Below, in pieces: positions 9,165-44,514 of a stretch of DNA of 64,000 nucleotides. The position numbers and the translations under genes are program-made. The DNA is taken from contig CAYGYR010000003.1 of the NCBI GenBank assembly GCA_964354285.1, forward strand, positions 30,902-94,901, in the 5' to 3' direction. Within the stretch, counting starts at the first letter, position 1; each line of letters begins with the position of its first letter. The notes beneath the pieces were generated by a model, which had not been told where the DNA came from, did no database searches, and worked only from the letters and a program-made list of their open reading frames with translations. The stretch comes from an uncultured Methanosarcinales archaeon (GTDB lineage: Archaea > Nanobdellota > Nanobdellia > Woesearchaeales > ARS49).

Positions 9165-9189
9165 GTTTTTATTTTCTTTATTTTAAGAA

Positions 9190-9501
9190 TCAATCTTTAG
9201 AATAAATCCTGGTCTCTTGCGGAACTAAGGTTTGTAGTTTTTTAAGCGTACTCGGTGATAAATTTGTCACAGTCACGGGCATAGTCCCATTTGTCTGCTT
9301 TTCATACGCTGCTGCGAGCATGTGCAAGAGACAATCTTTATGCACATATTCAACTCCTGCGAAATCTACAATTACAGGAGATCTTATTGCAACAATATCT
9401 GCTATTTCTTTGCCTATGTCTACAGCATCACTTCTATGTAATTCTGTAAGAATTATTTTTGCTCTATACGTTCCATTATTTGATACTTCAAAGTATTTCA
9501 T
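9190..9501 (-). CDS. STAS-domain protein (anti-sigma-factor antagonist, SpoIIAA-like)
   Basis: 103 aa with the STAS-fold pattern (VAIRSPVIVDFAGVEYVHKDCLLHML...TNLSPSTLKKL). Confidence 0.6.
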   Translation of the reverse strand: MKYFEVSNNGTYRAKIILTELHRSDAVDIGKEIADIVAIRSPVIVDFAGVEYVHKDCLLHMLAAAYEKQTNGTMPVTVTNLSPSTLKKLQTLVPQETRIYSKD

Positions 9502-9553
9502 AGGGTATATAATGGGGTTTGAAGTATTTAAAACTATTGAAATATTTATTGAT

Positions 9554-10387
9554 TTAGATAATTTTTACAGTCAAAACAGTCATATCATCCTGTTCGCTAA
9601 AGTGTTCGTATTCTTCCGCCGCAGTTAATATTTTGTTGCATATCTGCTGAGCTGAATCTTGTGTGTTCGATAGGACTACTCTAGAAAGTTCAGCTATATC
9701 AAATTCATGCCCTTGCAGATTTTTTCTTTCTACTATTCCGTCCGTGTATAGAACAAGAATATTTCCTTTTTCCAGTATTACTTTTGATTCGGCAAAGGGA
9801 GCTTTTGTGCTTAGACCAAGAGCAGGCCCTGTTTTTTTCAGCTCAATACCTGGATTTTTGCCTTCTTTAAACAGTAAAGGCGGGTTATGTCCCGCACAGG
9901 TATAACCAAATTCTTTGTTTTTCAGATCCAGAATACCATAAAAAAGAGTCACAAACTTGCCTCGCAACTTGTCTGAACAAAGAAGGTCGTTAACATTCTT
10001 AACCAAACCCGCCGAACCTGCATGATACTGACTTAATGCTTTCATATACGCCCGGGCAGTAAGCATTATTGCAGAAGCTGCGAGACCATGGCCGGTTGCA
10101 TCAGCAATATACAGATGACTCTGGTCGTTGTCAAATAAAGAGACATTTAAAAAATCTCCAGACATTGCTTCAGCAGGCGCGAATGCATAGCCCACATCCA
10201 CACCCGGAATTTGAGGAATCTGACCTAACAGAAGTTTCTGTATATCTTTAGCAGCAACTAATCCTTTTTTATATTTTTGATATTCTTGATAATAGATACA
10301 ATCTTCAAGACCATCACAATTCTTTTCGGTTCCCATCGCATAGAATAATACTTCGCAATTTATAAAGTTTTCGCTAATAACCACCAT
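9554..10387 (-). CDS. PP2C-type (SpoIIE/RsbU-like) serine phosphatase
   Basis: PPM motifs are present: GDFLNV, LYIADATGHGLAASAIM, LVLYTDGIVE. Confidence 0.8.
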   Translation of the reverse strand: MVVISENFINCEVLFYAMGTEKNCDGLEDCIYYQEYQKYKKGLVAAKDIQKLLLGQIPQIPGVDVGYAFAPAEAMSGDFLNVSLFDNDQSHLYIADATGHGLAASAIMLTARAYMKALSQYHAGSAGLVKNVNDLLCSDKLRGKFVTLFYGILDLKNKEFGYTCAGHNPPLLFKEGKNPGIELKKTGPALGLSTKAPFAESKVILEKGNILVLYTDGIVERKNLQGHEFDIAELSRVVLSNTQDSAQQICNKILTAAEEYEHFSEQDDMTVLTVKII

Positions 10388-10611
10388 TTAGTAGTAATAA
10401 ATCGAAAGATTTAAATATTAGCTTCACTTTCCTATGGATTACTATGAGTAATATAACTAGTAAAAGGACAGAGAAATCTGGTTTTGCTAGTTCTAAGACT
10501 TATACCTATTTCTAAAGTCTGAATTTTAGTTCGGACTGCTATCATTTCTTGGCAGAGCTGCATTCTAATTTCAGATTCTCATTGGCAACTTGACTTAACT
10601 CTATAATTTTT

Positions 10612-10696
10612 CCCTGCTTAGCTCAATGGCAGAGTGGCCGGCTGTAAAAAATCTTGCAGCTCCCGGCAGGTCTCAGTTCGAATCTGAGAGCAGGGA
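10612..10696 (+). tRNA. tRNA-Tyr (GTA) with an approximately 15 nt intron at the canonical 37/38 position
   Basis: Acceptor ccctgct/agcaggg. D arm gctc...gagt. Anticodon stem gccgg/ccggc with loop ct-GTA-a, interrupted by aaaatcttgcagctc. T arm ctcag-TTCGAAT-ctgag. Discriminator A. Confidence 0.8.
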
Positions 10697-10732
10697 CTCG
10701 GGCTTGCATCCCTAACTGCAGGAGGAAATAAA

Positions 10733-11149
10733 ATGAAACAAAGTATAGACGAAGCATTGGCAGAAGAGAAACAAGTAGTTGTACGTATGAGCACTGCAAA
10801 ACCTGAGCCGTTTGCAGGAGTTGCAGAAAAGTATAATCTTCATATTGGAAAGCCATACCGAATAATCATTGCTGGCACAAATCCAGCAGATTCAGCTACA
10901 TTCGACGGCATGATGACAAAGCTGACGGTGCAGGCAGATGAGAAAGGGTTTAGCATCAGAGAGCTTGTGCTTGAGAAAGGCCTGTCTTGGGACGAATGTT
11001 CTGAGAAAAAGCCTTTCAAGAAGGAAGTTTTCGGCCCGCCTGAGGACCCTGAAGAAGGCTACACTCTGCTCGGCTTTGGAATAATAAAAGACGCAGAAGG
11101 ATTCCAAAGAGCAAGAGAGAGAATAGTGAAAGAACTAGGAGGTAAGTAA
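10733..11149 (+). CDS. hypothetical protein
   Basis: 138 aa. AGGAGG precedes the start. Confidence 0.5.
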   Translation: MKQSIDEALAEEKQVVVRMSTAKPEPFAGVAEKYNLHIGKPYRIIIAGTNPADSATFDGMMTKLTVQADEKGFSIRELVLEKGLSWDECSEKKPFKKEVFGPPEDPEEGYTLLGFGIIKDAEGFQRARERIVKELGGK

Positions 11150-11150
11150 G

Positions 11151-11486
11151 ATGGCAGAATTTTACTGGCAGCCTAGTTTCGGGCATGGTGGCGAAAGCAG
11201 AAGCTCAGAGCCTCTTCCAAAGGAGAAATCTCTTTTAGAGAAGTCTTTGGATGAGATTCAGGAAAAGGCTAATGCTGTGCTTAGAGCTGCTGTAGAGCTT
11301 GCTAAATCAGGCAAAGAACAGGACAAAGAGAAGATTGAGGAGCATATTCAGGTATACAAACAGCTCACTTCAATTGTTCCTAGCGGCTTTGATGAAGCAA
11401 GAGTTGTAGATGTAAGAAAGCATTTCGAGTACAATCGCAGGCTTGCTGAGTTTGAAAAACAGCTGAAGAAAGATATCTTCGGCTGA
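11151..11486 (+). CDS. hypothetical protein
   Basis: 111 aa, translationally coupled to the previous gene. Its last codons and terminator region are duplicated at 12591. Confidence 0.5.
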   Translation: MAEFYWQPSFGHGGESRSSEPLPKEKSLLEKSLDEIQEKANAVLRAAVELAKSGKEQDKEKIEEHIQVYKQLTSIVPSGFDEARVVDVRKHFEYNRRLAEFEKQLKKDIFG

Positions 11487-11520
11487 TTTTTTTATTTTTT
11501 TATTTTTAATTATTTTCACG
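11464..11520 (+). repeat. 57 bp direct repeat, left copy
   Basis: TGAAGAAAGATATCTTCGGCTGATTTTTTTATTTTTTTATTTTTAATTATTTTCACG, about 90% identical to 12591..12649. Confidence 0.85.
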
Positions 11521-11558
11521 AAGCTTTAAATACCGAGCTAATCTTAAATATTGCTGGA

Positions 11559-12032
11559 ATGAGTCAAAACATTAATATACTTCAAAACCATAATGTTGCG
11601 GTTATGGGGGAGAATACACTTAACGAAAGGGCAGACTATAGTATATTCTTGGATATGTTGCTCAAAGAACATCCTGCTTTTAAAGTTGTAATAAGCGAGC
11701 CGATAGAATTCCAGAGAGCTGTTAAAAAATCTTGTCTTGAGGGTCTGGTAAAAGGCATACAGGATTTCAAGGATACAGGTGAAGAAAAATCTATTTATGA
11801 TTATCCTGCAGATGGTCTTTGGTATCAAACAAGTATCGAACCGGCAGTTTATGAACAGCTTTGCAATAATTCTGTTGTTATTAAATATTGGGAAAAGCCA
11901 GAATGGGCAGGCAAAGACCATAAAGAAGTTCAGTGTGGTAATTTAGCAAGAGTAGTTTCAGGAACATATCCATCTTTTATTGTTCATAGAAAAGACCAAA
12001 AAAAATGGTCACCTACTTCTATGCGACTATGA
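11559..12032 (+). CDS. hypothetical protein (inside the cassette)
   Basis: 157 aa. AT-shifted codon usage. Confidence 0.45.
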   Translation: MSQNINILQNHNVAVMGENTLNERADYSIFLDMLLKEHPAFKVVISEPIEFQRAVKKSCLEGLVKGIQDFKDTGEEKSIYDYPADGLWYQTSIEPAVYEQLCNNSVVIKYWEKPEWAGKDHKEVQCGNLARVVSGTYPSFIVHRKDQKKWSPTSMRL

Positions 12033-12549
12033 TATGTTCCACATAAATAATTGCAGGATGCAATTCTTTGTTTCTGGATTCTAGTATTGCCCTTTCAGCA
12101 GCAGGTATTTTATTTAAACTAATTGTCGTTGGTTTATCTATTCTAAATACACCGTTCATCATATTAGAACGAGTTTTATTCTTGATTTTCACGACAAGAA
12201 ATCCTGTAGGTAAAGGAATTTCGTAATATGTGTAGCCCAGTCTATTGGTTTTGCTTTGCCATGGTGAAAGTAATACAAAGGTAATCAGGTCTTGGCACTC
12301 TTGCGGGCTAGGAACAGTGCCATCTGTCTTAACGAGCAGTGTGTATTCTGGTGCGTCGGCTTTGCCTTTAATATGTTTCTCATAAAACGCAACAAATTCA
12401 GTAGACGAATAATAAATTGCTTGTTCAACCTCCACTTTTATCATAGGCACATCTTTTTTCTTCAACTGTTTCAACACTCTTCCATCTAAAATCAATTGTC
12501 CTGTTTGTACAATTTTGAACTGTTTGCCCATGTCTTTAAAGGCTAGCAT
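12019..12549 (-). CDS. hypothetical protein (inside the cassette)
   Basis: 176 aa, convergent with 11559..12032 and overlapping it by 14 nt. Confidence 0.45.
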   Translation of the reverse strand: MLAFKDMGKQFKIVQTGQLILDGRVLKQLKKKDVPMIKVEVEQAIYYSSTEFVAFYEKHIKGKADAPEYTLLVKTDGTVPSPQECQDLITFVLLSPWQSKTNRLGYTYYEIPLPTGFLVVKIKNKTRSNMMNGVFRIDKPTTISLNKIPAAERAILESRNKELHPAIIYVEHIIVA

Positions 12550-12590
12550 ATGGAATAACCCAAATATTCAAGTATAAATAAGTATCTTAC

Positions 12591-12649
12591 TGAAGAAAGA
12601 TATCTTCGGCTGATTTTTTATTTTTTATTTTTCGTAATTTTCAGTGACA
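12591..12649 (+). repeat. 57 bp direct repeat, right copy
   Basis: TGAAGAAAGATATCTTCGGCTGATTTTTTATTTTTTATTTTTCGTAATTTTCAGTG. Confidence 0.85.
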
Positions 12650-12855
12650 AAAACCAAAAACTATTTAAGCATCTTCCATTTTTCTTATGTTTAGTGATGA
12701 TTTATGGCGAAACCAATTACTGAATCAACATTGGCCCCATTCTAATTAGATTTCTTTTTTACATTTCGACCAGAGTGCAGCGGTGAGCGTAAAAAGCATC
12801 GTTGTTGCACAAAGTACAACACACATTAATACGAACTGTTCAAAGGTGAAATAAT

Positions 12856-13854
12856 ATGGCAGACAACGTAATTCATGTAAAGGACCTGAAAAAGACATTC
12901 AAGACATACAAAAGGGAAGAAGGCTTCTTCAATGCAGTTAAATCTCTCTTTAAGAGAGAGTATACGATAAAGCAGGCACTGAAAGGAGTGAGCTTTGACA
13001 TCGGCGAGGGAGAGATTGTTGGCTTTATCGGGCCAAATGGTGCTGGAAAGTCAACCACGATAAAAGCGCTTGCAGGTGTGCTCTTCCCAAGCTCTGGCGT
13101 AGTCAAGACTCTCGGATACACTCCCTGGGATGAAAGAACAGAGTATGTCAAGCATATTGGTGTTGTTTTTGGCCAGAAGCCTCAGCTTAACTGGGACCTT
13201 CCTCCTTTGGATACTTACTGGCTCAACAAGGAGCTCTATGATATTCCAGAAGACCAGTTCAAGAAGCGATTGAACAGGATGATCAAGTTGCTTGATGTAG
13301 AGGAAATTGTAAAGATTCCAGTCAGGGACCTTTCATTAGGAGAGAGAATGAAGTGCGCCCTTATCTCAGCACTGCTGCACAATCCAAGGCTGGTTTTCCT
13401 TGACGAGCCGACAATTGGCTTGGATGTTGTTGCAAAAGATAAGCTCAGGGACTTTGTGTTAGAGGTCAACCAGAAATTCAAGACAACTTTCATAGTCACG
13501 ACTCATGACATGGGTGATATTGAGCGATTGTGCAAGAGAATAATCATAATCAACAATGGTGTTATTGTTTATGACGGCTCTATTGAGAAAATCAAGAAAG
13601 AGTATCTCACGCACAAGCATCTTGATGTTACTTTCAATGAGATGAAGCAAAAATTCAAGCTTAAGGGATGCAGAATCGTAGGAAGAAATGATTACGAGCT
13701 CAAGATAGAGCTTGATACAAAAAAGCAGACTGTGAAGAATGCAATCAACCATTTGATTACAAATTATGATGTTGCAGACATCATAGTACAGGACCCTCCG
13801 ATTGAGGAGATAATCAAGAAGATATACAAGGAACATGATGGGAATCAAAAGTAA
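12856..13854 (+). CDS. ABC transporter ATP-binding protein
   Basis: Walker A GPNGAGKST, signature LSLGERMK, Walker B LVFLDEPTIGLD. Confidence 0.9.
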   Translation: MADNVIHVKDLKKTFKTYKREEGFFNAVKSLFKREYTIKQALKGVSFDIGEGEIVGFIGPNGAGKSTTIKALAGVLFPSSGVVKTLGYTPWDERTEYVKHIGVVFGQKPQLNWDLPPLDTYWLNKELYDIPEDQFKKRLNRMIKLLDVEEIVKIPVRDLSLGERMKCALISALLHNPRLVFLDEPTIGLDVVAKDKLRDFVLEVNQKFKTTFIVTTHDMGDIERLCKRIIIINNGVIVYDGSIEKIKKEYLTHKHLDVTFNEMKQKFKLKGCRIVGRNDYELKIELDTKKQTVKNAINHLITNYDVADIIVQDPPIEEIIKKIYKEHDGNQK

Positions 13855-18294: not shown

Positions 18295-18939
18295 ATGGAA
18301 AGAAGAATATTACAACCAGAACAAATAATTGTCCCTGGAGAATATGAAGTAGGAAGTGAATCAATCCTAAAAATATACTTCAGAATTTTTGATAGAGGTC
18401 ATGGTAAAGATTTGCCACCTGTAGTTGTTGTCAATAGTAGTTTAATTACAAAACAAACTAGACAAGAAAGGCTGCAGGAACAAATTATGCACATGAAAAA
18501 GTCTGAAGAGGCAAATGAAAAAATACACGCGCCTTATGGAGCATCTTATCTCATGGCCAAACCAGCTATTCAAGAAACAGAGGAAAGATACAGAAAAATA
18601 GAAGGAAAACTTGAATCCGCCCCATATTATTTGATAGATGGAAATCATAGAACCGCTGCTGCAACTCTTACTAATACTTCAATTTCCGCTTTAGAACTTC
18701 AAGTAGATGGAGATTTTGAAGAAATTAAAAAAAGGATTGAAAGAGGAAAATTATTTGATTTCAAAAGACCAGAAAAATCATTACAAACATTGGTTCTTGA
18801 GTTTGAAAACTACGTATTAACGTATATCGAAGATTGCAGGACAATTAGAGAAAGGATTGATGAACTAATTTCTAATGGTGCTTTGCCTCAATACATGAAA
18901 GAAAGGTATCACAAAAGAAAACAGTCCAGAACTAGCTAG
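18295..18939 (+). CDS. ParB-like nuclease-domain protein
   Basis: Has the motif YLIDGNHRTAAA that characterises the ParB/sulfiredoxin fold. Confidence 0.6.
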   Translation: MERRILQPEQIIVPGEYEVGSESILKIYFRIFDRGHGKDLPPVVVVNSSLITKQTRQERLQEQIMHMKKSEEANEKIHAPYGASYLMAKPAIQETEERYRKIEGKLESAPYYLIDGNHRTAAATLTNTSISALELQVDGDFEEIKKRIERGKLFDFKRPEKSLQTLVLEFENYVLTYIEDCRTIRERIDELISNGALPQYMKERYHKRKQSRTS

Positions 18940-44013: not shown

Positions 44014-44514
44014 TCAAGACACCTGCTTTAATTTTTCAAGCACACTGAATTTTTTGCGGTATTCATCAGGCCTGTCTTTGCTGGTTTCAGATGCTTTTTT
44101 GTACTGCAACTTAAGGCCTTCTAAACTAATGGCTTTAACAATTAAACCGTCAAAATCAAAATCCCTAAAATCTCTGGGGCCGCTGTACCAATAATCAATA
44201 GAGTCGAGCTCTATTCGTAAATCATCGTTGAATATCTGCAGTGTATGCCACTCAGCTGAGTAATTATACTTAATTTTGTTCTTTGCTAAAACTTTAATTA
44301 TTTTTTCAAAATGAATTTCTGGGATTAAGAAATCAAAATCATTTACCCGGATAGTCTTATTCTTTGTATAGCCAAAATAAGCTAAACTTCCGTAGGCAAT
44401 AGGAGTGACTCTGAGTTGATTACACAGGTCAAGAATTTCTCTGCAAAAAAATTTCAGCCTGATAAAAAAGTCTTTATTTGCAGGATACTCTTTTATTTGA
44501 ATCATAAAACACAT
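44014..44514 (-). CDS. nucleotidyltransferase-fold protein
   Basis: IAYGSLAYFGYTKNKTIRVNDFDFLIPE fits the NTase G[SG]...D.D signature. Confidence 0.6.
   Translation of the reverse strand: MCFMIQIKEYPANKDFFIRLKFFCREILDLCNQLRVTPIAYGSLAYFGYTKNKTIRVNDFDFLIPEIHFEKIIKVLAKNKIKYNYSAEWHTLQIFNDDLRIELDSIDYWYSGPRDFRDFDFDGLIVKAISLEGLKLQYKKASETSKDRPDEYRKKFSVLEKLKQVS

Follow-up and report, generated by a model that had tools for sequence, protein, structure and literature searches.

How does a pair of genes come to lie between two copies of the end of their neighbour? The question is raised by a locus in a 64,000-nucleotide (nt) stretch of contig CAYGYR010000003.1 (positions 30,902 to 94,901; assembly GCA_964354285.1), from an uncultured archaeon of the Woesearchaeales; we call the whole stretch the window. 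Here the 3' end of a gene for a 111-amino-acid (aa) protein, the 111-aa gene, recurs downstream, and a 1.07 kb cassette with two convergent open reading frames (ORFs), ORF157 and ORF176, lies in between. A first, sequence-only reading saw foreign DNA integrated site-specifically by att-site duplication, either as a decayed or non-autonomous element or as an integron-like cassette, possibly carrying a toxin-antitoxin module, and called for a search for empty sites, a composition check and database searches. We find that the cassette is a derived insertion. The feature looks like one more case of a recombination scar of a kind already known, a one-off event and not a working mobile element.

The end of one gene is present twice

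The repeat begins with a 24-mer, CTGAAGAAAGATATCTTCGGCTGA, found at 11463-11486 and 12590-12613 and exactly twice in the window. No further copies occur across the 64 kb at up to three mismatches, and all 100 of 100 shuffled sequences gave 0 matches. The left copy is the final seven codons and the stop codon of the 111-aa ORF. With their T-rich tails the copies extend to about 55 nt each; aligned over 56 columns they show 89% identity and two indels, each of a single T. The sequence-only reading was thus right about the direct repeat, the duplicated gene end and the 1127 nt that separate the copies, and slightly off in their lengths, which it gave as 57 bp and as 23 nt of gene end. The copies do not differ at any of the 24 coding positions and diverge more in the distal T-tract, which in the left copy (T7AT7AT5AATTATTTTCAC) is unlike that of every empty site described below. 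The features at the locus are as follows.

11151..11486, forward: 111-aa gene, whose 3' end is duplicated (ORF and family comparison)
11460..11485, forward: terminator-like hairpin built from the final codons of the 111-aa gene, with a U-run after it
11463..11518, forward: left repeat copy, comprising gene end, stop codon and T-tract (repeat alignment and empty-site comparison)
11519..12589, no strand: inserted cassette of 1.07 kb with two convergent genes, absent from empty sites
11559..12032, forward: ORF157, 157 aa (in-frame substitution pattern; predicted all-alpha)
12019..12549, reverse: ORF176, 176 aa (in-frame substitution pattern; small, fast-evolving family)
12590..12643, forward: right repeat copy, the original 3' end of the 111-aa gene and its terminator, now orphaned and non-coding; its hairpin is truncated (colinear with, and nearly identical to, the one copy in relative L030)
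12644..13854, forward: promoter or leader of an ABC transporter and its ATPase gene (12856-13854), the conserved right flank, starting TGAC...AAAAACTATTTAAG

The duplicated gene end also forms a terminator-like hairpin, which had not been described in the earlier reading. Its arms, CAGCUGAAGA and UCUUCGGCUG, pair in a 10-bp stem that precedes the U-run. The left hairpin has a minimum free energy of -15.4 kcal/mol (z = -4.5), and the right copy, without the first 3 nt of the stem, folds poorly (z = -1.1). The hairpin is kept, with changed stem bases, in relatives L019 and L030 and in the alleles of the 111-aa gene from a second strain (strain-2).

Empty sites in relatives indicate an insertion

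Comparison with related genomes recovered the empty sites that had been called for. Six Woesearchaeota lineages carry the repeat once, with the 111-aa gene leading straight into the ABC transporter: L030 and L031, which are close relatives, L025, L026 (GCA_019323555.1), L023/L024 (GCA_964640255.1) and L019 (GCA_014729555.1). In L030, nucleotide identity to the window is about 92-93% and the 111-aa allele is 89% identical in protein; the order is 111-aa gene...CTGAAGAAAGATATCTTCGGCTGATTTTTTATTTTTTATTTTTTGTAATTTTCAGTGAC...ABC, without a cassette, the 111-aa gene continuing as ...CTGAAGAAAGATATCTTCGGCTGATTTTTTATTTTTTATTTTTTGTAATTTTCAGTGACAAAAAACCAAAAACTATTTAAG... directly into that ABC-transporter gene. 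L031, with a 78% identical (aa) allele, is likewise empty, and in L025, L026, L023/L024 and L019 the three-gene ABC operon again lies about 260 nt beyond a gene of the 111-aa family. These single-copy sites show that the 1.07 kb cassette is a derived insertion specific to the window's lineage.

The L030 single copy differs from the right copy and its flank in the window by one substitution and one indel. By this match, the right copy represents the ancestral 3' end and terminator of the gene, which have kept their original register relative to the ABC promoter, and the T-tract of the left copy is the novel one. Gene conversion of the right copy by the left was considered and rejected, since the right copy fits the L030 empty site better than the left copy does.

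The opposite polarity, in which the cassette and both repeats are ancestral and the empty sites are precise deletions between the repeats, is highly improbable. Recombination between the copies within their identical first 30 nt would give exactly the L030 sequence, and the window, L030 and the cassette-bearing contig L014 are about equidistant from each other. However, all six lineages outside the window/L014 group are empty, the most distant included, every empty site bears the right-copy type of T-tract, and L019 combines an empty site with the gene pair elsewhere. Given the six empty lineages and the L019 arrangement, parsimony strongly favours insertion. The distant empty sites contain a stretch of about 58 nt that was considered as a leftover ORF176 promoter, which would mark these sites as deletions; the idea was dropped, as the stretch shares only a 10-mer with that promoter (E = 0.27) and is absent from the close empty sites L030 and L031.

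The right copy decays and the 111-aa gene varies among strains

Among close strains the cassette is present in every contig that spans the site, including three that were retrieved only by way of the 111-aa protein and not selected for the cassette. Strain-2 contigs (L004 and others) match the window at 100% identity over the cassette and some 1.7 kb to its right. The right copy in all the other strains reads CTGAAGAAATATATCTTCGACTGA, which would be translated as LKKYIFD and a stop, with an altered T-tract after it, and in L014 exactly the 54-55-nt right copy is missing, ...TATCTTA being followed directly by TGACAAAAAACC.... Altered in other strains and missing in L014, the right copy behaves as a dispensable, decaying relic. 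The cassette is about as diverged between the window and L014 as are its flanks.

The 111-aa gene itself varies in a distinctive way. Its core (about 11200-11473) is 55-67% identical in nucleotides and 44% in protein between strain-2 and the window, and the flanks are 90-100% identical. All 20 members of the family conserve an N-terminus MAEFY(W/G).. and a C-terminus (Q/R)LKK(D/R)IF(G/S), and every member that carries a source name is from Woesearchaeota (annotated as Candidatus Woesearchaeota). Such divergent alleles in near-identical backgrounds show that recombination anchored in this gene is active here, and that the gene swaps alleles between strains through its conserved ends.

Substitutions between strains are also patchy inside tracts that are otherwise 100% identical, at 11636-11667 (four to five single-nucleotide polymorphisms in 32 nt) and at 12590-12649 (about 8-10 differences in the 55-nt right repeat). 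This clustering suggests short-patch recombination or mosaic assembly.

The cassette holds two lineage-restricted genes

Reading the window against the second locus of the pair in L019 set the boundaries of the cassette, which starts at the left with GAAGCTTTAAATACC... and ends at the right with ...AAGTATCTTA. Its two ORFs are convergent and overlap by 14 nt at their 3' ends, as first described, and each is preceded by about 35-40 nt of TATA-like sequence. Against L014, which is 8% diverged, substitutions counted by frame gave 12 synonymous and 11 non-synonymous changes in the frame of ORF157 (2-3 and 19-21 in other frames) and 16 and 8 in that of ORF176 (1-4 and 22-25 in other frames). These patterns indicate that both ORFs are real genes. 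The reported A/T bias of their codons is borne out by the G+C content at third codon positions (GC3), which is 0.255 in ORF157 and 0.324 in ORF176, compared with 0.419 +/- 0.062 for 60 ORFs of the window.

The relatives of these proteins are few. Searches of Pfam, PHROG and PADLOC returned nothing meaningful for ORF157, ORF176, the 111-aa gene or the 138-aa gene upstream of it; a NorB-like match to ORF176 was rejected (19.9 bits, cut-off 29). A word-based search of 5.8 billion proteins found only the proteins' own clusters and one 160-aa protein from a Woesearchaeota metagenome-assembled genome, and HMMER, run exhaustively over 1.84 billion representatives, gave about eight stand-alone homologs of ORF176, 140-200 aa long. 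Two long repetitive proteins from the HMMER search (P0032, P0033) were set aside as spurious, having FN3/IPT-like repeats by inspection. Scans of genome contigs matched the L019 genome alone, scans of metagenome contigs returned only two contigs already known, and IMG/VR viral contigs held no relatives of either protein. The pair represents two uncharacterised protein families restricted to Woesearchaeota, and a family so small and without viral members is not a proliferating element.

Structure adds little to this picture. The AlphaFold2 model of ORF157 is all-alpha (predicted local distance difference test, pLDDT, 81) and matched no fold in PDB or BFVD, every E-value being at least 0.7. The model of ORF176 is unusable (pLDDT 34), and a profile of nine ORF176-family sequences returned only noise from PDB sequences and Pfam.

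That the two genes form an addiction or toxin-antitoxin-like module, a proposal about function only, is very doubtful. They always occur together, in three lineages, and evolve fast: ORF176 homologs from L019 and L032 are 39% identical, whereas the adjacent PALP proteins are roughly 90% identical by eye. ORF176 is also knocked out in three contigs, by a 50-nt deletion (12292-12341) in L015 and by a C-to-T change that gives Q98stop (12258) in L016 and L017, and ORF157 stays intact in all three. Yet the genes converge with overlapping 3' ends, unlike the co-directional operon of a type II system; neither matches a Pfam, PADLOC or PHROG family, and no fold match was obtained with the good ORF157 model. 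Convergent orientation and the lack of any known-family match in the database searches leave this role unsupported.

The same pair resides at a second site

L019 carries the pair in the same convergent arrangement: a 160-aa protein (P0003) shares 55% identity with ORF157 and a 179-aa protein shares 51% with ORF176. On one side of the pair is a homolog of the window's 248-aa gene, on the other a gene of the PALP (cysteine synthase-like) type. The pair lies there about 1.5 kb upstream of a block of tRNA, 113-aa gene and ABC transporter that is itself an empty site. L032 shows the same convergent arrangement beside PALP, with a partner whose C-terminus reads WSPDCARL before the stop. No direct repeats were found around the L019 pair, and its GC3 is equally low (0.237 and 0.346).

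As the L019 pair is equally low, low GC3 is a property of the family and no mark of recent import. The description of the cassette as foreign is not supported: the pair occurs at another nearby site in two Woesearchaeota lineages, has no relatives in viral contigs, and shares its low GC3 with the pair of L019, the lineage in which this could be measured. We regard it as a resident Woesearchaeota module.

A further apparent context was rejected. Contig L011 (positions 1-1766) is 100% identical to window positions 12579..11869 and then passes into high-GC DNA, where more than 350 aa of an Ig-like-repeat protein continue in frame with the last 53 aa of ORF157. Chimeric assembly probably explains this contig; a genuine fusion variant is the less likely alternative.

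How the cassette may have arrived

From these arrangements we infer a route. Ancestrally, the 111-aa gene ended in its hairpin and oligo-T terminator with the ABC-transporter operon directly after, and the window lineage gained a single insertion of 1.07 kb between the two. The incoming DNA would have consisted of a 111-aa gene 3' end, its terminator and the pair. Its homologous end would have paired with the resident 111-aa gene and its far end would have joined illegitimately 24 nt before the resident stop codon, orphaning the old gene end and terminator downstream as the right copy. Such a route, homology-facilitated illegitimate recombination or 'C-terminal displacement', would involve no integrase. 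The left copy would now serve as the working gene end and terminator, and the right copy would be a relic without coding function that could at most still provide an oligo-T stop before the ABC promoter. The pair consists of clade-restricted, fast-evolving convergent genes, each with its own core promoter. We give this single, displacement-type insertion about an even chance of being the correct account.

We favour displacement because the right copy is ancestral, the distal part of the left copy is divergent, and neither a recombinase nor inverted repeats were found, and additionally because allele swapping is active at the anchor gene and the right copy is decaying. The remnant that displacement predicts is present, as the resident 3' end lies downstream of the insert and is colinear with the L030 flank. 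So is a polymorphic anchor, given the variable core, conserved termini and near-identical flanks of the 111-aa gene. The distal T-tract of the left copy, being unlike the empty sites, fits an origin in incoming DNA. Bacterial effector and Rhs loci offer a precedent (PMC5361080).

Several observations weigh against displacement. The CTGA/GTGA microhomology that bounds the right copy would suit displacement, but it is only 3-4 nt long and is one base off in L014. The donor arrangement needed, with the pair right after a 111-aa gene and no right copy, is seen only as the right half of L014, in which the cassette is joined to the ABC promoter without the right copy; the left junction is not among the sequence recovered from that lineage. 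Integrase-mediated integration, too, has as its classic signature a direct repeat of this kind, about 55 bp long, by which the 3' end of a gene is restored, the neat trimming to two genes and their core promoters could mark a defined mobile unit, and the pair is patchily distributed over two different sites across lineages. To our knowledge, homology-facilitated illegitimate recombination has never been demonstrated in DPANN archaea.

The strongest competitor, which we nevertheless consider unlikely, is a non-autonomous integrative element that entered by a Campbell-type crossover between an element-borne 55-nt attP and an attB at the gene end, using a recombinase encoded elsewhere. The locus has what att duplication predicts, namely flanking direct repeats of about 55 bp, a restored gene 3' end and single-copy empty sites in relatives. 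The repeat is explained equally well, and a crossover in its first approximately 30 nt fits, as only the distal part of the left copy differs from the empty site. A hairpin as target, low cassette GC3, neat trimming, and a patchy pair with another site in L019 and L032 are also as such an element might show. Against this, a Pfam scan of 27 window ORFs (20 selected between 1.9 and 43 kb, and seven at the locus) found no integrase, recombinase or transposase in the cassette or elsewhere among them, in keeping with the integrase absence already remarked on. Flanking repeats are absent from the L019 pair, other lineages carry the right copy in mutated form or have lost it, and the pair is single-copy, extremely rare and without viral relatives. 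That cassette and flanks have diverged about equally between L014 and the window speaks for long vertical residence, not for recent hopping. Of integration with a duplicated target, the insertion stands as genuine, given the single-copy empty sites; the site-specific att mechanism is not supported, given the repeat-free L019 pair, the decaying or deleted right copy and the absence of a recombinase among the scanned ORFs.

A more far-reaching version, in which the 55-nt hairpin and oligo-T is a true recombination site and a recombinase encoded elsewhere carries the pair, as a minimal cassette without integrase, from one chromosomal site or strain of DPANN archaea to another, seems quite unlikely. 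If true, archaea would have a gene-cassette system of a new kind, with a terminator hairpin as its target; on current evidence this is a minority view.

We hold it improbable that the locus arose by tandem duplication of a local segment in an L019-like ancestor, reaching from the pair to the 111-aa gene's terminator, and then by deletions in which the second copy lost everything from PALP to 24 nt before the 111-aa stop codon and the first pair was lost later. The L019 pair lies close enough to the tRNA/113-aa/ABC block (about 1.5 kb) for one duplication to span both, gene content upstream of the tRNA varies between lineages, and features of mobile elements are absent. This scenario requires at least three independent events, however, and the close empty-site relatives L030 and L031 show no intermediates. 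The distal T-tract of the left copy diverges beyond the coding part, in which 0 of 24 positions differ, as would not be expected of a simple duplication. Both duplication with deletion and reversed polarity are less parsimonious than the favoured insertion.

The integron-like cassette of the sequence-only reading is excluded on architecture. An attC site is an imperfect inverted repeat of 57-141 bp with RYYYAAC...GTTRRRY cores; the boundaries here have no attC and no GTTRRRY, the two genes each have a TATA-like sequence upstream, no integrase domain such as IntI was found in the scanned ORFs, and the repeated motif occurs in only two copies per 64 kb, with no attC cluster nearby. A transposon, insertion sequence or miniature inverted-repeat transposable element is dismissed, as no terminal inverted repeats were found at the cassette ends, the duplication is about 55 nt long and no transposase was found.

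Neighbouring genes

Upstream of the 111-aa gene lie two further features.

10612..10697, forward: tRNA-Tyr(GTA) with a 14-nt intron (ARAGORN with introns allowed; Rfam tRNA, 55 bits)
10733..11149, forward: 138-aa gene, conserved upstream partner of the 111-aa gene (ORF and synteny)

The tRNA-Tyr noted upstream in the earlier reading is thus present, with its intron at position 37/38; the ARAGORN default call, Phe(aaa), is a miscall. The intron-bearing tRNA-Tyr marks the host as an archaeon, and the tRNA is the only Rfam match at the locus. A homologous tRNA stands directly upstream of the 113-aa gene in L019. The 138-aa gene has a homolog (61% aa identity) at the same position in L023 and a partial one in L024; ORFs of 150 aa (L025) and 166 aa (L031) occupy its place and were matched by position alone.

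Gene content between the 248-aa gene and the tRNA-Tyr (9165-10611) varies among the window, L004, L019, L023 and L025. The window has STAS and SpoIIE genes of low GC3 (0.26 and 0.31) here, L004 has other ORFs, L019 has the pair and PALP, and L023 has a 156-aa ORF. The interval looks like a small hotspot of gene turnover beside the tRNA.

To the right, the region upstream of the ABC transporter (12650-12855) shares nucleotide blocks with distant Woesearchaeota (CAAAAACTATAAATA, AGTGATG..ATG and TTAGATT..TTTTTT). It shows no conserved RNA fold and no Rfam match, and could combine a promoter with a leader or with a small upstream ORF. Other genes of the window are ordinary chromosomal ones, including those for TFIIB, a primase subunit, ribonucleotide reductase, an S-layer protein and, by synteny with L019 and L023, RNA polymerase subunits. 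Two ORFs are unusually low in GC3 or GC, 18295-18939 (GC3 0.215, without a Pfam match) and 44014-44514 (GC 0.337), and may be further accessory genes.

Discussion

The locus offers a base-resolved case of gene gain in a DPANN archaeon, with the filled site, the empty site and a one-repeat variant all drawn from natural populations. It also cautions against calling an integrative element on no more than a long direct repeat by which the 3' end of a gene is restored. An allele-swapping gene, gene turnover beside a tRNA and two uncharacterised protein families are notable in organisms whose genomes are very small and in which few mobile elements are known.

Three kinds of known system invite comparison. 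Integrated elements that lack an integrase and are bounded by attL and attR include cis-mobilisable elements and decayed integrative elements. The cassette resembles them in its repeats of about 55 bp, the restored gene 3' end, the empty sites and the absence of an internal integrase. It differs in comprising 1.07 kb and two genes without a mobile-element hallmark, in the repeat-free second site of the pair, and in a right 'att' copy that is decaying or lost. We know of no cognate integrase-bearing element for it.

Woesearchaeota are included in the GTDB phylum Nanoarchaeota. Integrons occur in this phylum, among archaeal integrons and clusters of attC sites lacking integron-integrases (CALINs; PMC9668308). 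Like the cassettes of those systems, the one described here is small and bounded by a repeated, hairpin-containing sequence; unlike them, its hairpin is a 10-bp terminator stem, with no R''/L''-L'/R' architecture and no attI or attC clusters (PMC9668308).

Displacement by homology-facilitated illegitimate recombination was proposed for effector-immunity arrays of type VI secretion (T6SS) in Vibrio cholerae and for orphan 3' modules of Rhs and contact-dependent inhibition (CDI) loci (PMC5361080). Compared with T6SS and Rhs loci, the orphan here is just 24 nt of coding sequence and a terminator, with neither toxin tip nor immunity gene, the cargo is a convergent pair without a known-family match, and the host is a DPANN archaeon. 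The likenesses lie in the arrangement itself: the new DNA would be anchored on the conserved part of a polymorphic gene, that gene has conserved ends and a variable core, and the old 3' part survives downstream as an orphan, in register with its flank (PMC5361080).

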